Below, in pieces: positions 12,086-58,733 of a stretch of 64,000 nucleotides of DNA. This stretch comes from Candidatus Pacearchaeota archaeon (lineage in GTDB: Archaea > Nanobdellota > Nanobdellia > Pacearchaeales > GW2011-AR1), in contig JBAZCR010000003.1 of NCBI GenBank assembly GCA_041654895.1, forward strand, positions 5,990 to 69,989. Reading direction: 5' to 3'. Under the pieces are notes generated by a model. It saw nothing but the letters and a program-made list of their open reading frames with translations. It was not told the DNA's origin and made no database searches. Position 1 is the stretch's first letter, and the number at the start of each line of letters is the position of its first letter. A program made the translations under genes and the position numbers.

Positions 12086-12108
12086 ATTCCCCTTGATTTT
12101 TAAATAAT

Positions 12109-12192
12109 GTGGGGGTGCCGGAGTGGCCAAACGGGCTGGACTTAAGATCCAGTGGCTTTATGCCTACGGGGGTTCGAATCCTCCCCCCCACA
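12109..12192 (+). tRNA. tRNA-Leu (anticodon TAA)
   Basis: Hand-folded cloverleaf. Acceptor GTGGGGG/CCCCCAC, anticodon stem CTGGA/TCCAG, loop CTTAAGA, long variable arm, T-arm GGGGG-TTCGAAT-CCTCC. No encoded CCA. Confidence 0.9.
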
Positions 12193-12243
12193 TAAGTTCT
12201 TTATTTTAATTAGGTTTAAAAAGTATTTTCATTTTATTCTTTT

Positions 12244-38857: not shown

Positions 38858-39175
38858 ATGAAAAAAATATATTCGTTTGTTTTGGTTTTACTTTTATTAG
38901 TTACAAGTGTATTTGCATATTATAATATGTATTCTGGTGATGACTTTGAAAGTGTAGTTGTAAATAATAATATTGATTCTGCAGAAGAAGTTGTTTATCC
39001 AAATGAGAAAGTTGTTTATGTTAATTTAGAAGAATCAAATGATTTAAGGGTTTTTAAAAAAAATGATTCTGATTATTACATTTATGAAGGAAAAATCTTC
39101 GAAGAAGAAAAAATAGTTCGTTGCCATACTAGTGCTCCTGAAAGTAGGCTGTTTTATATTAAATGTCCTAATTAG
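38858..39175 (+). CDS. small secreted hypothetical protein
   Basis: 105 aa; signal-like N-terminus MKKIYSFVLVLLLLVTSVFA. Confidence 0.4.
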   Translation: MKKIYSFVLVLLLLVTSVFAYYNMYSGDDFESVVVNNNIDSAEEVVYPNEKVVYVNLEESNDLRVFKKNDSDYYIYEGKIFEEEKIVRCHTSAPESRLFYIKCPN

Positions 39176-39791
39176 TTTTCTTGATAAATAAATTTGGATA
39201 GACTATGTCGCTCAAACAGCAGGGTATTAAGACTGAAAAAAAGACAATTATTATTGAAATCAAGTAATCTATTAAGGTGTTGATATTGCTAAAACTAATT
39301 AGATAAAATAAGCTTGCAAAAATTGATATAAATACATGGAAAGTGTGTGGTAATTTTGTTTTTTTAACTAGTATACCTAAATTTGCTCCTATTAATGAAG
39401 ATAATAAAACTAAAATCGGTTTTTCAATTAATGGAAAATGTAAGTGAGTTTTTATTCCAAAAATTAAAGTTCCTAAAGTTGGGAGAAATACGTCACTTAG
39501 TGATCCTATGATTATAGAGCCTGTAATTCCAATTAGTATTGCAGATTTAATTGATTTTTTATTATGGTAAAATACAGTTGTTGTTGCAAATGCTGAAAAC
39601 AAAATATGGGCTAGATGTAATGAATCAAAAATATTTTCTGATGAATTATAACTGATGAATTGGCTTAGTATAAATGTAGCAATTAAAGCTAAAATTGTTG
39701 CGACTGCTGTAAATGGTGCATGTTCTTTTAGTTCATTTATAATTTTGTTCATTAATCTTTCTTTTGGATTGTTTTTTTTAAATCTATTCAT
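39168..39791 (-). CDS. polytopic membrane protein (His-containing TM helices; function unknown)
   Basis: 207 aa with about 6 hydrophobic segments and conserved-looking His residues (HAPFTA, SLHLAHILFSAF, THLHFP, PHTFHVF). Confidence 0.5.
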   Translation of the reverse strand: MNRFKKNNPKERLMNKIINELKEHAPFTAVATILALIATFILSQFISYNSSENIFDSLHLAHILFSAFATTTVFYHNKKSIKSAILIGITGSIIIGSLSDVFLPTLGTLIFGIKTHLHFPLIEKPILVLLSSLIGANLGILVKKTKLPHTFHVFISIFASLFYLISFSNINTLIDYLISIIIVFFSVLIPCCLSDIVYPNLFIKKTN

Positions 39792-39830: not shown

Positions 39831-42737
39831 ATGGCTGATTTAGATTTTAGAACAATTGAAAAAAAATGGCAAGAGAGATGGGCAAAGGAAAAAATTTTTG
39901 AGGTTAGTGAAGATAATAAAAAGAAAAAATTTTATTTATTAGAGATGTTTCCATACCCTTCTGCTAGTGGTTTACATATGGGTCATGTTTGGAATTATAC
40001 TATTGGTGATGTTTTTGCTCGGTTTAAATTAATGCAAGGTTTTAATGTTTTACATCCAATGGGTTATGATGCTTTAGGTTTACCTGCTGAGAATGCAGCA
40101 ATTCAAGTAGGGGAACATCCTAAAGATTATACTGATAAATCTGTTAAAAATTATATTAAACAACAAAAACAATTAGGAATTAGTTATGATTGGAATAGGG
40201 TTTTATCAAGTGCTAATCCTGATTATTATAAATGGGATCAATGGATTTTCTTAAAAATGCTTGAAAAAGGACTTGCATATCAAAAAGAATCTAGTGTAAA
40301 TTGGTGTCCTAAGTGTAATACTGTCTTGGCAAATGAACAGGTTGAAAATGGTTATTGTTGGAGACATGAAGAAACTAAAGTTGAAATAAAGCATCTAAAA
40401 CAATGGTTTTTGAAAATCACAGATTATGCTGATGAATTGTACGAAAAGATAGATGAATTAGATTGGCCTGAAAAAACAAAAGTTATGCAAAAAAATTGGA
40501 TTGGAAAGAGCTATGGAACAGAAATTGATTTTGAAATAAATGGGAAAAAGTGGCCTATTTTTACAACTCGTCCTGATACTATTTTTGGAGTAACATTTAT
40601 GGTTGTTTCTGCTCAACATGAGAGATTATTTGAGTTAGTTACAAAGTCTGAAAAGAAAAAAGTTGAAGAATTCTTGAAAAAAATAAAAACTGTTTCACAA
40701 AAATCAATGAAAGATGTTGATGAATTAAATAAAGAAGGAATTTTTACAGGGAGCTATGCTATTAATCCTGCAACAGGAGAAAAAGTTCCAGTTTATGCAG
40801 GTAACTTTGTTGTAGCTGATTATGGTTCAGGTATGATAATGGCTGTTCCGGCTCACGACATGAGAGATTTTGAATTTGCAAAAAAATATGGAATTGAAAT
40901 TAAGCAAGTTGTTGTTCCAGTTTTCAAAAGCGAAGATAAAAATAAACCAAGAAATGATAAAAAAACAGTTTATCGTGATAGTGTTATGCTTGTTGTTAAA
41001 CATCCATCTGAAGAAAAATATTTGTATTTGAAATGGAATAAATTTAGTTGGCAATGTTTAGTTCAGGGTGGAATTAAAGAAGGTGAAGATTTTTTTGATG
41101 CAGCAAGACGTGAACTTATTGAAGAAACTGGTTATTTTGATATTAAAAAAATTGAAAGGTTGCCTTTAGATATGGATAATGTTTATTTTGCAGCACATAA
41201 AGATGAAAATCGTTATACACATGTTATTCCATTTTACATAGAACTTGCTAGTGAAAAGAAACAAAAAATTGATGAAGAAGAATTAGAGCAATTTGCGACT
41301 TGTTGGGCAAAAACTAAAGATTTAGAAAAGGTTTTTGGCGAAGCATTTAAGCATCACTTTTGGCTTGTTGGACAAGTAACAGGGAAGACAATGATTTATG
41401 CTTCTGATGGAGTATTAATTAATTCAGGAAATTTTAATGGGATTGAAAGTAAAGATGCAAAGGAAAAGATTAGTAAATGGTTAGAGGAAAAAAATGAAGC
41501 AAGAAAAGTTGTTAATTTTAGGTTACGTGATTGGTTGATTTCTCGTCAGAGATATTGGGGAACTCCTATTCCTGTTGTTTATTGTGATAGATGTGGTGTT
41601 GTTCCTATTCCTGAGAATGAATTGCCTATTGAACTACCACATGAAGTTAAATTTGGAAAAGGAAATCCTCTTGAAACAAATGGTAAATGGATAAATACAA
41701 AATGTCCAAAGTGTAATGGCTTGGCAAAAAGGGAAACAGATACAATGGATACTTTTGTAAATTCTAGTTGGTATTTTTTAAGATATTGTGACCCGGAAAA
41801 TAATAAAAATATTTTTGATAAAAATAAAGTAGATTATTGGTGCCCTATTGATTTATACATTGGTGGAGCAGAACATGCTTGTATGCATTTAATTTATTTC
41901 AGATTTTATACTAAATTTTTAAGAGATTTAGGATTACTAAATTTTGATGAACCAGCAATAAGATTGTTTCATCAAGGCATGCTTCATGGGGAAGATGGTC
42001 AAAAAATGAGTAAAAGCAAGGGTAATGGAGTTTTACCAGAAGTTGTTTCAAATATTTATGGGATTGATACTGCAAGATTTTTTTTATGTGGTTTAGCTTC
42101 TCCTGATAAAAATATTGACTGGAGTGAAAAAGGGATACTTGGTAGCATGAGGTTCATAAATAAATTATTTAATTTTTATAATTCTATAGAAATAGATAAT
42201 CAAAACTTAACTTTTAATTCTAAATTTAATAGGTTAATTAAAGATTGTACTAACTATTTGAATGATTTAGAATATAGAAAAGTAATCATTGAATTAAGAG
42301 GTTTTTTTAATGAAATAAGTGAAGTTTCTAAATTACCAAAAAAGATTTTAGAAGATTATTTAAAATTATTAAATCCTTTTTGTCCTCATTTAACTGAAGA
42401 ACTTTGGGAAAAATTAGGCAATAAAAAATTTATTTCAAATTCTGATTGGCCGAAATTTAATATCGAGGAATTAAACAAAAATAAAAAGATTGATTTAAAT
42501 GAAAAAGTTTTTAATAATATATTTAGGATTATTTCCAAATTAAAAGAATCCCAAAAAATTAGTTGTGTTTATTTATATGTTTTACCTTCAGAAGTAGAAA
42601 AATTAAATATAGAATACTTTAAAGAAAAATTAGGTTTTGATGTTAAAATCTATTCTGTAAAAGACGTTGATAAATATGATCCAAAGAATATGGCAAAGAA
42701 AGCAAAGCCAATGATGCCTGGATTGTATATTGAATAA
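39831..42737 (+). CDS. leuS: leucyl-tRNA synthetase (bacterial type) with a nested Nudix hydrolase domain
   Basis: SGLHMGHVWNY (HIGH), VNWCPKCNTVLANEQV, editing-domain TTRPDTIFG and MAVPAHDMRDFEFAKKYG, RLRDWLISRQRYWGTPIP, KMSKSKGN. An extra ~164 aa at nt 40914-41405 carries the Nudix box GGIKEGEDFFDAARRELIEETGY. Confidence 0.95.
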   Translation: MADLDFRTIEKKWQERWAKEKIFEVSEDNKKKKFYLLEMFPYPSASGLHMGHVWNYTIGDVFARFKLMQGFNVLHPMGYDALGLPAENAAIQVGEHPKDYTDKSVKNYIKQQKQLGISYDWNRVLSSANPDYYKWDQWIFLKMLEKGLAYQKESSVNWCPKCNTVLANEQVENGYCWRHEETKVEIKHLKQWFLKITDYADELYEKIDELDWPEKTKVMQKNWIGKSYGTEIDFEINGKKWPIFTTRPDTIFGVTFMVVSAQHERLFELVTKSEKKKVEEFLKKIKTVSQKSMKDVDELNKEGIFTGSYAINPATGEKVPVYAGNFVVADYGSGMIMAVPAHDMRDFEFAKKYGIEIKQVVVPVFKSEDKNKPRNDKKTVYRDSVMLVVKHPSEEKYLYLKWNKFSWQCLVQGGIKEGEDFFDAARRELIEETGYFDIKKIERLPLDMDNVYFAAHKDENRYTHVIPFYIELASEKKQKIDEEELEQFATCWAKTKDLEKVFGEAFKHHFWLVGQVTGKTMIYASDGVLINSGNFNGIESKDAKEKISKWLEEKNEARKVVNFRLRDWLISRQRYWGTPIPVVYCDRCGVVPIPENELPIELPHEVKFGKGNPLETNGKWINTKCPKCNGLAKRETDTMDTFVNSSWYFLRYCDPENNKNIFDKNKVDYWCPIDLYIGGAEHACMHLIYFRFYTKFLRDLGLLNFDEPAIRLFHQGMLHGEDGQKMSKSKGNGVLPEVVSNIYGIDTARFFLCGLASPDKNIDWSEKGILGSMRFINKLFNFYNSIEIDNQNLTFNSKFNRLIKDCTNYLNDLEYRKVIIELRGFFNEISEVSKLPKKILEDYLKLLNPFCPHLTEELWEKLGNKKFISNSDWPKFNIEELNKNKKIDLNEKVFNNIFRIISKLKESQKISCVYLYVLPSEVEKLNIEYFKEKLGFDVKIYSVKDVDKYDPKNMAKKAKPMMPGLYIE

Positions 42738-43037: not shown

Positions 43038-45113
43038 ATGAGAAAAAATGATGTGATGTTATTATCATTTGTTGCTTTGTTTTTAATTTTTTTGATTATA
43101 GGAATTAATTACACTGGCTTTTCTATTAATTTTTTTGAAGAAGGAGATTCTTATTTTGAAATAGTTGTATCTGACTCTAGTTTTAATGATGGAGATTTAA
43201 TTTTAGATTTAGATTCTGATGTTATTTTAAGGTATACTACAAGTAATCTTTCTAGTTGTTATTTAAGGGACTTGGATTTTGAAGAATTAATTAAATCATT
43301 ATACTTTGATTTATTTAATGAAACAATTAACTCTGACTTAGTTTATTCTTTTAATCAAGATACTTTGAATAATTCACTAAATATCTATGACTTTTTTGAA
43401 AGTAGCAGTTCACTTAATTCTGATTTAATACAGGACTTAATTTATAACATCTCCAATAAAATTGAATCAGAAGACTTCTTTTTAATTAGTGGTTTTAATG
43501 GTAATATTAAAGACATTGGAGAGGTCCATGATTTTTTTGAAAAAGTTTTATTTAATATTCCTCATGAGTTTGAATTATCTTGTACGGATAGTGATAATCC
43601 ATTAAATAATGAAAAATATTACTTTACTTTAATTTTTGACGTTGATGGTTTAGAAGTAAATAGATTTAAGCTAGAGCCTGAATTTTCTTTAGTTGATGAT
43701 TTTAATTATTCTTTTAATTCTTCAATTTTAATAGATGATATTCTGACTTTTGGAATTGTAGACAGATTAGTTGTTTCAGAACCTGAAATTTTTGATTGTG
43801 AAGTTTCTCCTAAGAATTATATTATTTGTCTGAATAAAAGTGAACTAAAACCTCAATTATACAATTTTGATTTAGATTTAGTAACAAAAGGTAATAGAAC
43901 TACATCTATTAAATTTTTTGTATTCTTTTATAAAAATGAGAATGTTCTATTAAATAACTCTTCAATGAATTTGATTGAGCTTAGTGATATAAATTTGACA
44001 TTAAATTTGTCTCTTATTTCTAATTTTTCTACAAATTTTTCCCTTACTTCTAAAAGTAAAACTGAAATGAATGATTTGGATGATAAATTAGCGGTGAAGT
44101 CTATTGTTATTGAAACAGACGAAAATTTTAATGAAAATTTGGAATGGGCAATTATAACTTTAAATTATTCTAAAGATGACTTACCAGATAATATTAATAA
44201 GAGTACTCTAAAGCTTTATTATTATAATGAGAGTTTAAAAATCTGGGAGTTAATTCAAAATAGTTATGTTAATGAAACTTATAATTATATTTGGGCTAAT
44301 ATAACTCATCTTAGTGAATATGGTATCTTTGGTAATGCCCTTGCTGAAGAAGTTCCTAAGAAATATTATAGGTTTGAAAATAATAGTTGCTCCTCAGTTT
44401 ATCTTTATTATGACGAACTAACTGACAATGATTATGATTCTTTAAGCAAATGTAAAGAACAAATTATAGAAGAATTAAATGATACCATTTTAGGTGAAGA
44501 TGATAGTTTAATGAATATAACTACTCAATCACTTGAGAGAAGTTTAGAAGGAGCATCATTTGATTTAATTAATATTGGAGATAATTTAATTTCTTTTGAT
44601 GAAGTTTATCATTTAAGTTTTAACTTTCAACAATATTCTTTCTTTTTAGTTAATATTGATAGTGAAAAGAAGATTGCTTCTTTATTTTTTGAAGATTTAC
44701 TTTTAAATATTGATTTAGAAGAAGGAAAAATTTTTAATTTAGATTTAAATGGTGATGATGAATATGATTTTATATTTATTTTAAGTGAGATTAAAAATAC
44801 TGACCAAATTAATCTTATTGTTGAAAATTATATTAATGATAATTTAAATAATCAGAAAGATTCTGGTGAAATAGAATTTACTCTTTTTAAAAATGTTAAT
44901 AAAACTTTGGCTCTTATTTTTGATATTTTGATTGGTATTATTTTCTTATTGTCTTTATTAATTTTGATTAAAAAATTGAGAAAAAAAGGTCTTTTGATTA
45001 ATTTAAAGCCTAATTTTAAAAATTTAAGTTTTAAAAGGGATAGTATACCTCCTGAAGATAAAGAAGAATATAAGAGCATTAAAAAATTTCAAAAGAAAAT
45101 TAAAAATTTATAG
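43038..45113 (+). CDS. large acidic cell-surface protein (N-terminal signal/TM, C-terminal TM anchor)
   Basis: 691 aa. N-terminus MLLSFVALFLIFLIIGI; C-terminus LALIFDILIGIIFLLSLLILI plus a basic tail. D/E/N/S-rich with many NxS/T sequons. Confidence 0.55.
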   Translation: MRKNDVMLLSFVALFLIFLIIGINYTGFSINFFEEGDSYFEIVVSDSSFNDGDLILDLDSDVILRYTTSNLSSCYLRDLDFEELIKSLYFDLFNETINSDLVYSFNQDTLNNSLNIYDFFESSSSLNSDLIQDLIYNISNKIESEDFFLISGFNGNIKDIGEVHDFFEKVLFNIPHEFELSCTDSDNPLNNEKYYFTLIFDVDGLEVNRFKLEPEFSLVDDFNYSFNSSILIDDILTFGIVDRLVVSEPEIFDCEVSPKNYIICLNKSELKPQLYNFDLDLVTKGNRTTSIKFFVFFYKNENVLLNNSSMNLIELSDINLTLNLSLISNFSTNFSLTSKSKTEMNDLDDKLAVKSIVIETDENFNENLEWAIITLNYSKDDLPDNINKSTLKLYYYNESLKIWELIQNSYVNETYNYIWANITHLSEYGIFGNALAEEVPKKYYRFENNSCSSVYLYYDELTDNDYDSLSKCKEQIIEELNDTILGEDDSLMNITTQSLERSLEGASFDLINIGDNLISFDEVYHLSFNFQQYSFFLVNIDSEKKIASLFFEDLLLNIDLEEGKIFNLDLNGDDEYDFIFILSEIKNTDQINLIVENYINDNLNNQKDSGEIEFTLFKNVNKTLALIFDILIGIIFLLSLLILIKKLRKKGLLINLKPNFKNLSFKRDSIPPEDKEEYKSIKKFQKKIKNL

Positions 45114-46175
45114 TTAACTATTTTTTAAGATACATTTGTCTAGAACTTTTGGATTTACTTTCTTAATATTTCCTTGAAATAGTTTTAGTTCTTTTATTAT
45201 TTCTTGTGATAACAATCTTTTTATGTCTCTGCTTAGTAATTCTCCTTTCTTATACTTTTCAAATAATTCTTTTGTCTGCTCTTTATTATAATAATAATTT
45301 TTTAAATATTGACAAGCCATATCAATGTCTGGATTTCCTCCTAATTTTTTATGTAATTCAATTGTGTCTTGTCCTCCTGAAAATGCACTATTACACTTTT
45401 TGATTATTTGTTTTTCAGTGTCTTTTAGGAATATAGTATTATTTTTTGATTTTGATGCTTTTTTTCTGTCGAGACCTTCAATAAATCTTAGGTGTAACAC
45501 TGAAGGTTTTGGGATATTTAACCTTTGGGCAATATCTCTAGCTATTCTTAAGTGTGCATCTTCATCTGGACCAATTGGGACTAAAACATTTTTTATTTTT
45601 AATATTTCTTGAGGATATAAAACATGGGCTGCTTGTACTGCAGGATAAAAATGTAATCCAATATTGGTTTGTGGGCTATAACCATATGTTGCTTTAATTT
45701 CAGAGTAATTTATTTTTTTGCTCATTTTGAATGCTAAATTGTAAATGTTAGTATAGATATTATCTATTATGAAAAATGTTTTTTCTGGGTCAAAGCCATA
45801 TGCTAACATTTCCTTTGCCAATTCTAATGCATATTCTTTTGCTTGTTCTTGTGTTTGCACTTTTCCTGCTACAAAGCTTTCATCATCTGATATTGGTATA
45901 AATACGGGAATATTATATTCTCTTTGAAAAAAAAGATTAGTGTCAAATACAACTTTGTGCCCAAGATGTAATGTTCCTGAAGCATTAACCCCTGACACAA
46001 TTGCACTTTTTTCTCCTTTTTTTAATCTATCTAAGAATTTATCAAAATCTCTATGTGAATAAATTAATCCTTTATCAAAGGTATAAAATTTAGGTAGGTT
46101 TTTTATTTGTGAGATTCTTTTTGCTCCAAATTCTTTTACTAATTTTTCATTATCAATGTTAATTGAATTTTCCAT
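45114..46175 (-). CDS. trpS: tryptophanyl-tRNA synthetase (archaeal/eukaryotic type)
   Basis: HRDF, HIGH-like GTLHLGH, ISDDES, GFDPEKTFFI, FYPAVQAAH, KMSKS-like KASKSK; 353 aa. Confidence 0.85.
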   Translation of the reverse strand: MENSINIDNEKLVKEFGAKRISQIKNLPKFYTFDKGLIYSHRDFDKFLDRLKKGEKSAIVSGVNASGTLHLGHKVVFDTNLFFQREYNIPVFIPISDDESFVAGKVQTQEQAKEYALELAKEMLAYGFDPEKTFFIIDNIYTNIYNLAFKMSKKINYSEIKATYGYSPQTNIGLHFYPAVQAAHVLYPQEILKIKNVLVPIGPDEDAHLRIARDIAQRLNIPKPSVLHLRFIEGLDRKKASKSKNNTIFLKDTEKQIIKKCNSAFSGGQDTIELHKKLGGNPDIDMACQYLKNYYYNKEQTKELFEKYKKGELLSRDIKRLLSQEIIKELKLFQGNIKKVNPKVLDKCILKNS

Positions 46176-54117: not shown

Positions 54118-55573
54118 ATTCCAGTTGATCCTGCTGGAGGATGCTGCTATTTGGCTTGGACTTAGGCATGCAAGTTATTTCTTTTGGAATCTCTAAAAGG
54201 AAAGCGAACTGCTCAGTAACACGTAGTTAATCTGTCCTTGGGTAAAGGATAACCACGGGAAACTGTGGCTAATACTTTATAGGAGTTTGGTGCTGGAATG
54301 CTCTTACTTTTAAACGTATAGGCCCAAGGGTGAGACTGCGGCTGATTAGCTTGTTGGTGGGGTAACTGCCTACCAAGGCGATGATCAGTAGGGGCTCTTA
54401 GCGGAGTCGCCCCGAGAAGGAATCTGAGACACTATTCCTAGCTCTACGGAGTGCAGCAGCTGCGAATCTTTTACAATGCACGAAAGTGTGATAAAGTGAG
54501 CCAAAGTGCTTATCAATGATAAGCTTTTTTTCTGTGTAAAAATCAGAAAGAATAAGGACTGGGAAAGACCGGTGCCAGCCGCCGCGGTAATACCGGCAGT
54601 TCAAGTTGCATCCAACTTTATTGGGTCTAAAACATCCGTAGCTTGTTTATTAAGTCTCTTGTGAAATCCTACGTCTCAAGCGTGGGGCTTGCAGGGGATA
54701 CTGATAAGCTAGAGACCGGTAGACGTAAGGAGTACAATCAAGGTAATGGTTAAATATGTTAATCTTGGTTGGACTAACAATTAGCGAAGGCACCTTACGA
54801 GGACGGATCTGACAGTGAGGGATGAAGGCCAGGGGCGCAAAACGGATTAGATACCCGTGTAGTCCTGGCAGTAAACACTGTTCACTAAACATCGGGCCCT
54901 CTTCGAGAGGATTCGGTGCTGAAGGGAAGCTGTAGAGTGAACTACCTGGGAAGTATAGTCGCAAGGTCGAAACTTAAAGGAATTGGCGGGGAGACATACA
55001 ACGAGTGACGCGTGCGGTTTAATTAGATTCTACACCGTGAACCTCACCAGGAGCGACAGCAGGATGAAGGTCAGTCTAAAGGGCTTACCTGACACGCTGA
55101 GCGGAGATGCATGGCCAACGTCAGCCTGTGTTGTGAAATGACCTGTTAAATCAGGTAACAGGCGAGACCCGTGTTAATAATTACTACAGAAATGGGTACA
55201 TTATTGAGACTGCCTTGGTAACAAGGAGGAAGGTGCGGGCTACGTTAGGTGAGTACGTCCCTAATCCCCTGGGCTACACGCGCGCGGCAATGGTATGTTC
55301 AATGAGATGCAACTCTGAGAAGAGAAGCTAATCCCCTAAAACTTATCTCAGTTCAGATCGAGGGTTGCAACCCACCCTCGTGACGCTGGAATTCGTAGTA
55401 ATCGGATTTTAGCATAGTCCGGTGAATATGTCCCTGTCTCTTGCACACACCGCCCGTCATCGCAACCGAGTTATGGTTGGAAGAAGCCTATTTGAGGAAG
55501 ATTCTTATTATGACAAGGTAGCGCAAGTCGTCACAAGGTATCTGTAGGGGAACCTGCAGATGGATCACCTCCT
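54118..55573 (+). rRNA. 16S rRNA (archaeal), about 1456 nt
   Basis: 5' ATTCCAGTTGATCCTGCTGGAGG; GTGCCAGCCGCCGCGGTAATAC; GGATTAGATACCCGTGTAGTCC; AAACTTAAAGGAATTGGCGG; GCACACACCGCCCGTC; 3' GGATCACCTCCT. GC-rich island in AT-rich DNA. Confidence 0.93.
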
Positions 55574-55605
55574 ATAAATTTTAATTAAGCTTATCTATTA
55601 TAATT

Positions 55606-55617
55606 ACTGGCCATTCT
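55606..55617 (+). repeat. 3' arm of the 16S rRNA processing stem
   Basis: Complement of 53968-53979. Confidence 0.7.
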
Positions 55618-55662
55618 AGCTTTAATTTATAAATAAAGGAAGTTTAATTTTCATATTGTTTT

Positions 55663-55733
55663 GGGCCTGTAGTCTAATGGTAGAATACCTCGCTTGCACC
55701 GAGGAGACCCGTGTTCAACTCACGGCAGGTCCA
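55663..55733 (+). tRNA. tRNA-Ala (anticodon TGC) in the 16S-23S spacer
   Basis: Acceptor GGGCCTG/CAGGTCC with the G3:U70 Ala identity pair. Anticodon stem CCTCG/CGAGG, loop CTTGCAC, T-arm CCGTG-TTCAACT-CACGG. 71 nt with an irregular D-arm. Confidence 0.85.
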
Positions 55734-55857
55734 TTTAGGTTTACAAAACCTAAACAAAATGATGAACCGAGCAAAATTTTTTGTTTGGGGAGTTTGAGAC
55801 TAAAATTTTTTGTCAAAGATGAAAAATTAAGAAATCAAAAGTTATAGTCAATGAGAA

Positions 55858-55876
55858 CAGTATAAAAAATCGATAC
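55858..55876 (+). repeat. 5' arm of the 23S rRNA processing stem
   Basis: CAGTATAAAAAATCGATAC pairs with GTATTGATTTTTTATACTG at 58734-58752 (19 bp, one G:U). Confidence 0.8.
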
Positions 55877-55903
55877 TGGCAAGTAAAGAAGATTTAAATC
55901 CTA

Positions 55904-58711
55904 CTTAAGCTGTTAGAGGGATAGCTTGGCTTAGATTTTGATGAAGGACGTGGCAAGCTGCGATATGCTTTGGCGAGGTGCATGCGACCATTGAACCAAA
56001 GATTTCCGAATGTGAAACATATTCATCTGAATATACCGAAAGGTAGAGAAACGCCGGGAATTGAAACATCTTAGTACCGGTAGGAAAAGAAAATAATTAA
56101 TGATTTCCTTATTAGCAGAGAGCGAAAAGGAATTAGGGCAAACTGAATCTTGTTTGGAAACGAATTAAGAGATGTGGTGAAGTATAAAGACTAAGTTAAT
56201 GAGTTAAAGTTTTCTGGAAAGAAACACCTTAGAGGGTGATAGTCCCGTAGATTAAGTTAATATGTCTGACTTTGAAAGAGTAGGGTACCTTGGATTAGGT
56301 GCTTGAATATGGCAGAATTAACTGCTAACCCTAAATAGTAATCTAAGTCCGATAGCGTACTAGTACCGCGAGGGAAAGCTGAAAAGTACTCTCACAAGAG
56401 GGTTAAAAGACTTGAAATCTAACAGTTACAAGAGTGATACTGCCTCATTTTGGGGTTGTATCGTACGTTTTGAAGAACAGGCCAGGGAGTTAATTTTTGT
56501 GGCGAGATTAAGAAATGGAGTCGTAGCGAAAGCAAGTGTGAAAGCGCGTTAGTCACAAGGATTAGACCTGAAGCCAGATGATCTACTCCTGAGCAGGTTG
56601 AAGTTTCTTGAAAGGGAAATGGAGGACCGAACCGTTGTTGTGTGCATGCACTCGGATGACTTGGGAGTAGGGGTGAAAAGCCTCTCTAATCTGGCGATAG
56701 CTGGTTCCTGCTGAAATATGCCTTGGTATAGTCCGGTATAGTTTGTTTATGGGGTAAAGTTACAGATAGAATTTGCAGGGGCAAAAGCTTACGGAATTCT
56801 TTCTAACTCAGAACCTGTAAACTGCATAGTGCCGGAAACAGCGATTGCATGTAAGATGCAATTACGAAACCCGAACAAGGGAGCCTAAAGTTAAGGTCCC
56901 AAAGTGTTTGCTAAGTGTAACGAAGGTAGTTTTTATTCTGAGACAGTAGGGAGGTAGGTCTAGAAGCCGCCACCCTTTAAAGAAAGCGTAACAGCTCACC
57001 TATTGAGAATAAAAGCGCCGAAAATGGACGGGGCTATAAGCAAATCACCGATACTTTAGATACATCTAGATAGATGTTATGGTAAGCAGGCGTATTAATT
57101 GCGTAGAAGATTTAATGTAAATTGGGTTGGAGCGATTAATAATGCTTATCCTGGTGTGAGTAGGAACAAATCTTCCTTAGAACCGGAAGATGTCGAAAGG
57201 GTACGGTTTCCTTGGCACTATCAAATAACCAAGGGTTAGTCGGCACCTAAGTCATATCTTAACTGAATATGACGACGGATAACAGGTTAATATTCCTGTA
57301 CTAGAAAATTTTTGCTAAGTCTTTAGAATTGCTTTCGGATAGATAGAATACTGAGAGGTATTGAGAATAAGAAATTTGTGGATGGTAATCATGAGAAGCA
57401 AATGAATTATCTCTTCGTCTGTTGATTCCAGGAGCCTGTGAAAAGTCTAAAGAATAGAAAGTTTTTTAGCCGTACCAAGAACTTACACTGGTACCCAAGC
57501 TTAAAAGGCTAAGACATGAAAGTTTAAACGAGTTAAGGGAATTCGGCATAAATAGTCCCGTATCTTCGGTAGAAGGGATGTCTATTCTTTTCTATGATTC
57601 ATTATAGGGGGGAGTAGATCGCAGTAACAAGGATGGCACGACTGTTTACCAAAAACATAGCTAAGCGCAGTTCCGAAAGGACACGTATGCTTGGTGAAGT
57701 CTGCCCAGTGGTGGTGTCTAAATGCCTATTCCAATAGGTGGAAAGCCCATCAAACGGCGGGCCTAACTATGAGGCTCTTAAGGTAGCGTAATGCCTTGTC
57801 GTCTGAATGGCGACGTGCATGAATGGCTTAACGATGTTGTCACTGTCCCTAACTCGGTGCTTCTGAAATCTCTCACCGGTGAACAGGCCGGTATCGCCAA
57901 GTGGGAAGCGAAGACCTTGTAAACCTTTACTACAACCTGCCGTTGTGAATTTATTATAGATGCTTAGAGTAAGTGGGAGCGTCGATGTTTAAGTTTCGGC
58001 TTAAATGGAGCAAAAGTGTAACACCACTCATTTTTAGTAAATCCACTAACCTTTTTTGGAACAGCGGTTGGCGGGTAGTTTGGCTGGGGCGGCACCCCGC
58101 AGAAAATGTATCTGTGGGGCCCAAAGACAAACTCATCTAGGTCGGAAATCTAGAGTAGAGTGTAAAGGCAAAAGTTTGTCTGACTGCTTTTTGACAAGCA
58201 AAGAAAGCAGGAGTGAAAGCTGGGCTTAACGAACTTACTATGATTTTTAATGGGTCAAGTAAATGTCAGAAAAGGTACTTCAAGGATAACAGGCTTGTCG
58301 CCCCTGATAGTTCACATTGACGGGGCGGTTTGGTACATCGCTGTCGGCTTTTCCTATCCTGGATGTGCATAAGCATCCAAGGGTGTCGGAGTTCACGCAT
58401 TAAAAGGGATCGTTAGCTGGGTTAAGAACGTCGTGAGACAGTTTGTATGATATCTACTTGGCGTGTTGTTGTTTGAGTGGAAGGATCTTCTAGTACGAGA
58501 GGAACGGAGATTCGGTGCCTCTGGTCTACCAGTTGTTATGAGCAGGCTGGGCAGCTACGCACTAATCGATAAGCGCTGAAAGCATCTAAGCACGAAGCGA
58601 GCCGCAAAACGAAACAACTAAGGCCGCAGTAAAAGACTGCGTTGATAGAGTTGATGTGTAAGTATTGAGCTTTTTGCGATTTATTCAGCATGCAACTACT
58701 AATAGCCTTAA
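55904..58711 (+). rRNA. 23S rRNA, about 2.8 kb (ends approximate, +/- 20 nt)
   Basis: 5' CTTAAGC...GATGAAGGACGTGGCAAGCTGCGATA. Internal conserved blocks include GACCGAACCG, GGATAACAGGCT, AGCTGGGTTAAGAACGTCGTGAGACAGTT, CTAGTACGAGAGGAAC and GCTGAAAGCATCTAAG. 3' AGCCTTAA pairs with the 5' end. Confidence 0.9.
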
Positions 58712-58733
58712 TTTTAAATTTTTTTTAATTGGC

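Follow-up and report, generated by a model that had tools for sequence, protein, structure and literature searches.

A complete Nudix fold nested in the editing domain of bacterial-type leucyl-tRNA synthetases from DPANN archaea and CPR bacteria

The leuS gene of a Candidatus Pacearchaeota archaeon (assembly GCA_041654895.1) encodes a bacterial-type leucyl-tRNA synthetase (LeuRS) of 968 amino acids (aa), whose editing domain, connective peptide 1 (CP1), carries a complete Nudix fold as an in-frame insert. This was confirmed by profile search, by the Nudix box and by predicted structure, all of which fit the Nudix superfamily. The gene lies in a 64,000-nucleotide (nt) stretch of contig JBAZCR010000003.1 (positions 5,990 to 69,989 of the forward strand), referred to below as the window; nt coordinates are those of the window and aa numbers those of its LeuRS, unless stated otherwise. 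Residue conservation in the host protein was assessed in a 52-sequence LeuRS alignment comprising members with and without the insert. The features of the gene are as follows.

39831-42737, + strand: leuS, 968-aa bacterial-type LeuRS with a nested domain (open reading frame (ORF) with an ATG start; TIGR00396; Pfam)
39975-39986, + strand: HMGH (HIGH) signature of the synthetic site, aa 49-52 (H49, G51 and H52 invariant in the 52-sequence alignment)
40491-40913, + strand: CP1 editing domain upstream of the insert, aa 221-361 (PF13603 at aa 221-371, corresponding to profile positions 1-150 of 185)
40563-40580, + strand: TTRPDT in the CP1 editing domain, aa 245-250
40914-41405, + strand: in-frame 164-aa insert, aa 362-525, with an N-terminal leader (VPVF...R) and the Nudix fold (PF00293, AlphaFold2 (AF2) and Foldseek)
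41067-41135, + strand: Nudix box GGIKEGEDFFDAARRELIEETGY, G413-x5-E419-x7-R427-E428-x2-E431-E432-x-G434-Y435, aa 413-435
41184-41213, + strand: clade-specific motif YFAAHKDENR, aa 452-461 (invariant columns of insert alignment A1)
41406-41510, + strand: CP1 editing domain downstream of the insert, about aa 526-560, up to the strand returning to the catalytic core (second PF13603 stretch; AF2)
42003-42017, + strand: KMSKS loop, aa 725-729 (M726, S727 and K728 invariant in the 52-sequence alignment)

The insert alone scored 52.4 bits with PF00293 (gathering score 21.1; E 7.2e-14), and within the whole LeuRS the same profile matched aa 386-498 with E 1.2e-12. AF2 folded the isolated insert with a pLDDT of 91.8 and a pTM of 0.86 into an alpha/beta/alpha topology, in which the helix formed by residues 60-72 (insert numbering) spans the Nudix box; inside the full protein the insert region retained a pLDDT of 86-95. 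A Foldseek search of the PDB with the insert gave 522 matches with E <= 0.001, the best 50 of which are all Nudix proteins (E to 4e-9, TM up to 0.69/0.83). These matches include NudI/YfaO, NudB, RppH, NudC and the diadenosine tetraphosphate (Ap4A) hydrolases CT771, aq_158 and that of Caenorhabditis elegans. The YFAAHKDENR motif includes two invariant residues, K96 and R100 (insert numbering), and an aromatic pair located 17-18 residues past the box, and in a PDB profile search its K and R align with the SKDTQR segment of AvrM14.

The insert is bounded by two anchors, KKYGIEIKQVV (aa 351-361) and DGVLINSGNFNG (aa 526-537). The distance between them is 164 aa in the window LeuRS and 9-23 aa in those among 120 close homologues that carry no insert. 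The equivalent loop of Thermus thermophilus LeuRS comprises 13 aa, with the alignment breaking between its residues 362 and 376. This break and the insertion point, at approximately position 150 of the 185-position Pfam editing-domain profile, place the insert inside CP1, about 35 residues ahead of the strand leading back to the catalytic core according to the AF2 secondary structure (downstream of the insert, a helix at aa 540-553 and a strand at aa 557-563). The insert begins with VPVF and finishes with IYAS, and no Hint or intein Pfam domain was matched in it. Its G+C content is 0.303 (flanks 0.283) and that of third codon positions 0.146 (flanks 0.162), so the composition is that of the host gene. 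The original prediction, made from the sequence alone, had described a complete in-frame Nudix domain of about 164 extra residues, host-like in composition and distinct from an intein, and had suggested a Pfam NUDIX search and a structure prediction, both of which have now borne it out. Its placement of the domain at the C-terminal edge of CP1 was right in substance, and its view that the host would otherwise be of normal LeuS size agrees with a length of about 820 aa without the insert (821 aa in the closest relative, P0004).

The host protein passed the equivalog threshold of TIGR00396 (leuS_bact) with 898.4 bits against a cut-off of 548.4; the archaeal-type LeuRS model gave 238 bits, below its cut-off of 648. 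The Pfam domains tRNA-synt_1, tRNA-synt_1_2 and Anticodon_1 were all recognized, and the LeuRS landmarks previously listed for this ORF were each found in place, including VNWCPKCNTVLANEQV (aa 156-171), MAVPAHDMRDFEF (aa 337-349) and RLRDWLISRQRYWGTPIP (aa 564-581). The editing-domain residues T245, T246, R247 and T250, together with H342 and D346 of the segment AVPAHDMRD (aa 338-346), are invariant in the 52 relatives, regardless of whether the insert is present or absent. AF2 modelled the full LeuRS, using the 52-sequence alignment, with a mean pLDDT of 87.4 and a pTM of 0.77. No ORF of 80 aa or more was found on the strand opposite to leuS. The best explanation is that the Nudix domain stays in the mature LeuRS, on a surface loop of CP1, and leaves the synthetic and editing sites undisturbed.

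The same domain occupies the same loop in 36 of the 120 best LeuRS homologues. We also scanned species-representative genomes with two clade-specific peptide patterns, derived from 12 closer inserts (alignment A3), and confirmed the matches by tblastn. At least 599 matching stretches were obtained, at least 567 of them confirmed, in DPANN archaea and in bacteria of the candidate phyla radiation (CPR; Patescibacteria). The 80 loci that were kept come from DPANN archaea and many CPR phyla, including Moran-, Parcu-, Magasanik-, Saccharibacteria, Gracili-, Berkel- and Liptonbacteria. In all 76 GTDB loci with a callable ORF, the Nudix domain is embedded in LeuRS past the equivalent of residue 361; this recurrence of the junction excludes misassembly and shows that the architecture is common in nature. 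No account of a Nudix domain in LeuRS or in prolyl-tRNA synthetase (ProRS) came up in a search of the full texts of PMC and bioRxiv, in which the most promising papers mentioned unrelated fusions or duplications. The original prediction had regarded a Nudix domain within a synthetase as something not described before. The architecture proved to be no rarity, given at least 567 CPR/DPANN stretches; as far as publication is concerned the prediction stood, since no published characterization was found. Both the synthetase and the superfamily are known, but their nested arrangement is widespread and, in the literature searched, undescribed.

Two further observations concern the annotation of these proteins. 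At NCBI, the Nudix-bearing proteins are named "class I tRNA ligase family protein", and the relatives without an insert "leucine--tRNA ligase". Automatic naming apparently fails on proteins with the insert, and owing to this difference annotation and completeness surveys may miss the Nudix-bearing LeuRS. Moreover, three Trp-rich versions (P0270, P0214 and P0136) carry WW for GG and ETWY for ETGY, and one Gracilibacteria locus (L019) yields no ORF under translation table 11; these look like genomes in which UGA encodes Gly (code 25), translated with the wrong table.

The window holds an SSU-tRNAAla-LSU operon with archaeal SSU and LSU rRNA (54118-58722), which identifies the genome as archaeal (DPANN), and the LeuRS sequences closest to the window protein come from Nano-, Woese- and Pacearchaeota. 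The genome thus combines an archaeal rRNA operon with a LeuRS of bacterial type. The presence of the same clade of Nudix-bearing LeuRS in CPR bacteria and DPANN archaea implies that leuS was transferred between the domains, possibly together with the Nudix cassette.

To examine the distribution of the module, 1.84 billion representative proteins were searched with a profile built from 27 inserts. This gave 161 matches below 1e-30, and the best 150, classified by local phmmer, are nearly all LeuRS or LeuRS fragments. Three insertion sites could be distinguished: (i) site A, the CP1 loop used in the window, (ii) site B, the hinge or start of CP1 (after residue ~209-245), which frequently holds two modules in tandem, and (iii) site C, near the second zinc knuckle (~residue 622). 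One LeuRS (P0121) contains three modules. Modules that share a protein are just 23-50% identical to each other, which indicates that they are old paralogues. No N- or C-terminal fusion of Nudix to LeuRS was observed among the 150 classified representatives. Roughly 25 representatives occur as free-standing proteins (160-190 aa) that begin at a start codon of their own and share the N-terminal leader. The gene of one of them (P0142) lies 2 nt upstream of a Nudix-bearing leuS, that of another (P0156) lies 3 nt upstream of a leuS without the insert, and a third (P0185) is encoded two genes upstream of a ProRS carrying the same module. In this archaeal-type ProRS (P0232 family; L087, 2762-4693), the clade Nudix is located between the anticodon-binding and C-terminal domains, an arrangement that is rare (five clusters among the 120 nearest ProRS). 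These findings are best explained by a Nudix clade of CPR bacteria and DPANN archaea that is functionally tied to LeuRS, as an upstream gene, as one to three nested copies and, in a few cases, as a copy in ProRS.

Two gene neighbourhoods of free-standing members are worth recording. Just upstream of the ProRS of the P0232 family there is a stand-alone Nudix gene as well as a 225-aa gene with a P-loop motif (Walker A-like, GAPATGKST). The gene of P0177 (L084, 4016-5513) is located 4 nt downstream of a gene for an Fpg/MutM glycosylase, with a SpoU methylase gene overlapping it from the opposite strand; this setting is GO-system-like, unlike that of the leuS-linked members.

The residues of the Nudix box are invariant in all 35 aligned LeuRS inserts, which are only 27-40% identical to that of the window, and of the 103 site-A modules among the representative proteins from the wider library search, 84 have a canonical box. 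The dN/dS ratio of the insert, calculated for six independent genome pairs, is 0.05-0.13, equal to or lower than that of the LeuRS flanks. The insert is under strong purifying selection.

The presence of the module is nevertheless subject to turnover. Outside CP1, the LeuRS of the window and P0004 (L088, 6001-8466) are 88-93% identical (residues 1-260 and 651-750). Within CP1, the identity is 49-75% over residues 261-361 (nt 40611-40913) and 52% over residues 526-575 (nt 41406-41555). In these mosaic segments the window protein is nearer to other LeuRS (up to 88-92%), and P0004 is likewise closer to other lineages. High identity outside CP1 and low identity inside it indicate that the CP1 segment was swapped by recombination in one of the two lineages. 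The identity of the Nudix modules is uncorrelated with that of their host flanks (r = 0.06), some pairs sharing 81% identity in the Nudix and 61% in the flanks; the neighbour-joining tree of the flanks is star-like. Around 40914 and 41405, no terminal repeats or target-site duplication could be identified in the DNA, where only short AT-rich matches turned up, which we attribute to chance. The insert is bracketed by a 16-nt direct repeat (88% identical; ATGGAATTGAAATTAA at 40888-40903 and ATGGGATTGAAAGTAA at 41437-41452, with a spacing of 549 nt). The repeat encodes YGIEIK and NGIESK, is not found in the consensus of the relatives, and is probably a chance occurrence in AT-rich DNA.

Nudix is not the only cassette found in the CP1 loops. 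Nucleotidyltransferases occupy the loop used in the window in P0047 and P0053 (PF14907, E 4e-10; PF10706, Aminoglyc_resit, E 3e-8). The same loop also accepts a 167-aa insert (P0078) and four kinds of 114-141-aa domain (P0022/P0114, P0084, P0091 and P0106), for all of which no Pfam match was obtained. A second insertion hot spot was noted in the hairpin EI^NGKK at the start of CP1, which corresponds to aa 236-240 of the window protein (nt 40536-40550). It carries an insert in 21 of 120 homologues, whether or not a Nudix module is present: a Ser_hydrolase/alpha-beta hydrolase of about 190 aa (PF06821, E 1e-10), a 158-aa domain of unassigned identity in P0016, or a HAD-like piece in P0046 and P0112, matched below threshold. 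A separate observation concerns P0047, P0053 and P0106, in which the host motif YT[DE]xxG[VI]LINS stands ahead of the cassette and returns at its end as a related segment that closes with YTD or D; this pattern looks like a duplicated host segment.

The use of internal sites in the CP1 region only, and the variety of enzymes in the same loops, indicate that position matters. One could go further and regard the CP1 loops as an exchangeable docking platform for accessory enzymes acting on the ends of tRNA-Leu or on adenylate-like ligands in the editing station, although we consider this broad reading unlikely. Its cassettes would be Nudix (one to three copies), Ser hydrolase, nucleotidyltransferase, HAD-like and at least five domains without a Pfam match, passed between lineages as the CP1 segment recombines. 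LeuRS would in that case unite charging, proofreading and repair or detoxification in one machine, in which the Nudix module would strip a polyphosphate adduct or cap from tRNA-Leu or destroy poisons that mimic adenylates.

As judged from its box, profile and fold, the insert is predicted to be a catalytically competent Nudix pyrophosphohydrolase, and its relatives give some indication of the substrate. A PDB search with the single sequence gave a best E of 5e-4, which a profile search improved to 1e-7. The best matches were the decapping Nudix AvrM14 (1e-7) and the Lupinus Ap4A hydrolase 1F3Y (4e-7, mostly over the box), followed by others including NudB, the C. elegans Ap4A hydrolase (1KT9, E 1.4e-4, spanning positions 45-154), RppH and Dcp2. 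These relatives act on nucleotides joined through at least three phosphates, i.e. Ap4A, caps, 5'-ppp RNA and substrates resembling nucleoside triphosphates (NTPs). In Foldseek, the Ap4A hydrolases CT771, aq_158 and 1KT9 were matched with TM 0.55-0.65. Among the NCBIfam models, all matched weakly, RppH was the most consistent (27/27 inserts, E ~1e-5 to 1e-10), alongside NudB (27/27), YtkD (24/27) and MutT (13/27), as well as NudI. With the MutT equivalog, the best E among the 13 inserts was 1.9e-4, and the window insert gave no match at E <= 1. The aromatic pair Y452 and F453, 17 and 18 residues past Y435, corresponds to [FY][FY] in the clade consensus; an aromatic residue 16-18 positions past the box was reportedly put forward by Dunn and colleagues in 1999 as a signature of Nudix Ap4A hydrolases. 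This pair and the invariant K, R and H of HKxxNR would suit polyphosphate-nucleotide substrates, with the Ap4A signature being only a lead. Taken together, the evidence favours a Nudix of the polyphosphate-nucleotide or RNA-end type. The roles put forward in the original prediction (Ap4A/Ap3A hydrolysis, adenylate hydrolysis or a housekeeping activity fused to leuS) thereby stay hypothetical.

Among the possible substrates, we rank first the dinucleoside polyphosphates (Ap4A, Ap3A and Ap4N) made by the synthetase itself, with a probability of roughly 0.35. Synthetase-bound aminoacyl-AMP would react with ATP or another NTP to give a dinucleoside polyphosphate, which the nested Nudix would clear where it is produced, with a presumed benefit of proximity. 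Ap4A and Ap4N originate chiefly from synthetases, and Nudix enzymes cleave Ap4A asymmetrically (PMC13627108). Local clearance was placed first because synthetases make these compounds from aminoacyl-AMP and NTP, and Nudix enzymes degrade Ap4A.

Several points weigh against this proposal. The closest characterized homologues are remote: the structural matches are generic (TM 0.6-0.7, identity 15-24%), and no named Nudix family of NCBIfam was matched above its cut-off, the window insert scoring 33.4 bits with RppH against a required 116. Ap4A is diffusible, and nesting in CP1 is therefore not required for its clearance; to our knowledge, LeuRS is not recognized as a main producer of Ap4A. A single substrate hardly explains three divergent copies in one LeuRS. 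The presence of the insert is patchy, and the nearest relative, P0004, with 80% identical flanks and shared neighbour genes, has a 20-aa loop in its place. Finally, in a sub-clade comprising about 15% of the modules (P0172, P0187, P0173, P0201, P0161, P0188 and others; for example GGIEEGQTAEEAARMEILEETGY), G-x5-Q and [M/A/T/Q]E replace G-x5-E and RE, with the EE pair retained, and the activity of these modules may be altered, weak or lost.

The similarity to RppH/NudH cannot separate the hydrolysis of Ap4A from an action on RNA ends, since these enzymes hydrolyse Ap4A and Ap5A as well. An RNA-end enzyme would remove a 5'-triphosphate, a cap (NAD/Np4A) or a 3'-CCA pyrophosphate or adduct from synthetase-bound tRNA-Leu (encoded in the window at 12108-12193) and, as the 3' end of the tRNA visits CP1, proofreading would extend to end repair. 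This role, which we regard as possible if rather doubtful, agrees with the AvrM14, RppH and Dcp2 relationships and with the matches of the RppH and YtkD models, every one of which is, however, below threshold. The restriction of the LeuRS sites to CP1, its hinge or the nearby zinc knuckle, without any terminal fusion among the 150 representatives, suggests that geometry matters, and the Ser hydrolase, nucleotidyltransferase and HAD-like enzymes in the CP1 loops of relatives point the same way. On the other hand, there is no sign of unusual tRNA-Leu ends in these organisms, and the insertion in ProRS is not obviously near the acceptor end. The lack of terminal fusions also speaks against a housekeeping passenger, i.e. 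a sanitizer of the nucleotide pool (MutT, NudI or NudB type) co-expressed with LeuRS or carried by it, because end-to-end fusion would be the easiest outcome for operon neighbours. The repeated and varied linkage to leuS (adjacency, three sites and multiple copies) is likewise not expected of a random passenger. We consider a passenger a minor possibility, in spite of the NTP pyrophosphohydrolases NudI/YfaO and NudB among the top Foldseek matches, the sub-threshold NudB and MutT matches, the position of P0177 next to an Fpg/MutM gene, and the tolerance of CP1 loops for many unrelated domains in genomes whose small size favours fusions.

It is distinctly improbable that the module is directed at adenylates, either non-cognate aminoacyl-AMP (pre-transfer editing) or poisoning adenylate mimics (target-embedded immunity). 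The linkage to two error-prone synthetases, LeuRS and ProRS, would fit such a role, as would the patchy presence, the mosaic CP1 segment of close relatives and the resemblance of same-loop cassettes to drug-modifying enzymes (PF10706, aminoglycoside-2''-adenylyltransferase-like, and the Ser hydrolase). However, the CP1 editing site is intact, so that no compensation by the Nudix is needed, the dN/dS ratio is unlike that of an arms-race gene, and we know of no Nudix enzyme that hydrolyses an acyl-adenylate or acyl-phosphoramidate. The same ratio led us to reject neutral junk, and it makes a non-catalytic insert in general (one with a structural or binding role, or a selfish element tolerated without benefit to the host) very improbable, as do the invariant metal-binding glutamates in the group of the window and the lack of terminal repeats or a target-site duplication beyond AT-rich chance matches. 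What speaks for such an insert is the sub-clade substituted at two canonical box positions, the insert-free nearest relative with unaffected gene order, and the uncoupling of Nudix and host identities, which suggests exchange of the cassette. Nothing was found in favour of an artefact, be it chimeric assembly, a frameshifted junction or an intein, and its probability is negligible. The same junctions are seen in every one of 76 independent genome loci, on which ground misassembly was rejected, and in dozens of metagenome proteins; the composition is that of the host, and AF2 folds host and insert jointly with high confidence. An intein was rejected as well, since there is neither a Hint domain nor splicing residues and the whole insert folds as Nudix.

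The gene order around leuS is conserved with the locus L088, which lacks the insert. The neighbouring genes are:

39168-39791, - strand: hydrophobic protein of about 200 aa, upstream of leuS (207 aa in the window, 194 aa in L088)
43038-45113, + strand: Asn/Ser-rich protein of about 690 aa, downstream of leuS (no Pfam match)
45114-46175, - strand: 353-aa gene beyond the Asn/Ser-rich gene (its counterpart in L088 is tRNA-synt_1b, Tyr/TrpRS)

Few enzymes of translation have been studied as thoroughly as LeuRS, whose editing domain is also a drug target. If the proposed hydrolysis of dinucleoside polyphosphates, or another catalytic role, is correct, a conserved second hydrolase in this domain would represent a new accessory activity for a synthetase, spread over hundreds of uncultivated lineages. 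The Rosetta-stone link (operon neighbour, nested copy and multiple copies) provides a first functional handle on an uncharacterized Nudix clade of CPR bacteria and DPANN archaea, and the CP1 loops emerge as a hot spot of domain insertion and exchange.

With respect to known systems, the host protein resembles bacterial LeuRS (T. thermophilus 1H3N/2BYT and Escherichia coli 4AQ7), matching that of T. thermophilus over its full length (E 4e-219) and keeping the HIGH and KMSKS signatures, the zinc knuckles, the T-rich editing motif and the catalytic Asp. It differs from the T. thermophilus enzyme in that it comes from an archaeon and bears a 164-aa enzyme domain in the loop formed there by residues 363-375. 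Furthermore, the alignment jumps from residue 577 to 622 of the T. thermophilus protein, so that the intervening region (~577-622), which we take to be the leucine-specific domain, has no counterpart in the window LeuRS. Another class I synthetase with an extra enzyme domain is represented by NCBIfam NF040702 (isoleucine--tRNA ligase, N-acetyltransferase domain-containing), a model that came up on the window protein; in that case both the synthetase and the domain are different, whereas the Nudix is nested in CP1 and occurs at several sites and in several copies. Inteins share with the insert the domain-sized, in-frame insertion into a conserved essential gene and the patchy presence among close relatives, but the insert lacks a Hint fold and splicing residues, remains part of the protein and is maintained as a Nudix by purifying selection.

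Among the Nudix proteins, the insert is similar to RppH/NudH and Lupinus 1F3Y in being a small single domain with an SWQ...GG motif leading into the box (HMMER alignment). In contrast to RppH and the Ap4A hydrolases, it has its own leader (P-x-F ... R-x-D-K ... R) and the motifs [FY][FY]AxHKxxNR and W131, and it is nested in a synthetase. The best PDB profile match, to the flax-rust effector AvrM14 (8DP8), spans both the box and the downstream K/R motif; its E is, however, just 1e-7, AvrM14 and the Dcp2-type decapping enzymes are eukaryotic, and the insert of the window has no evident RNA-binding extension.

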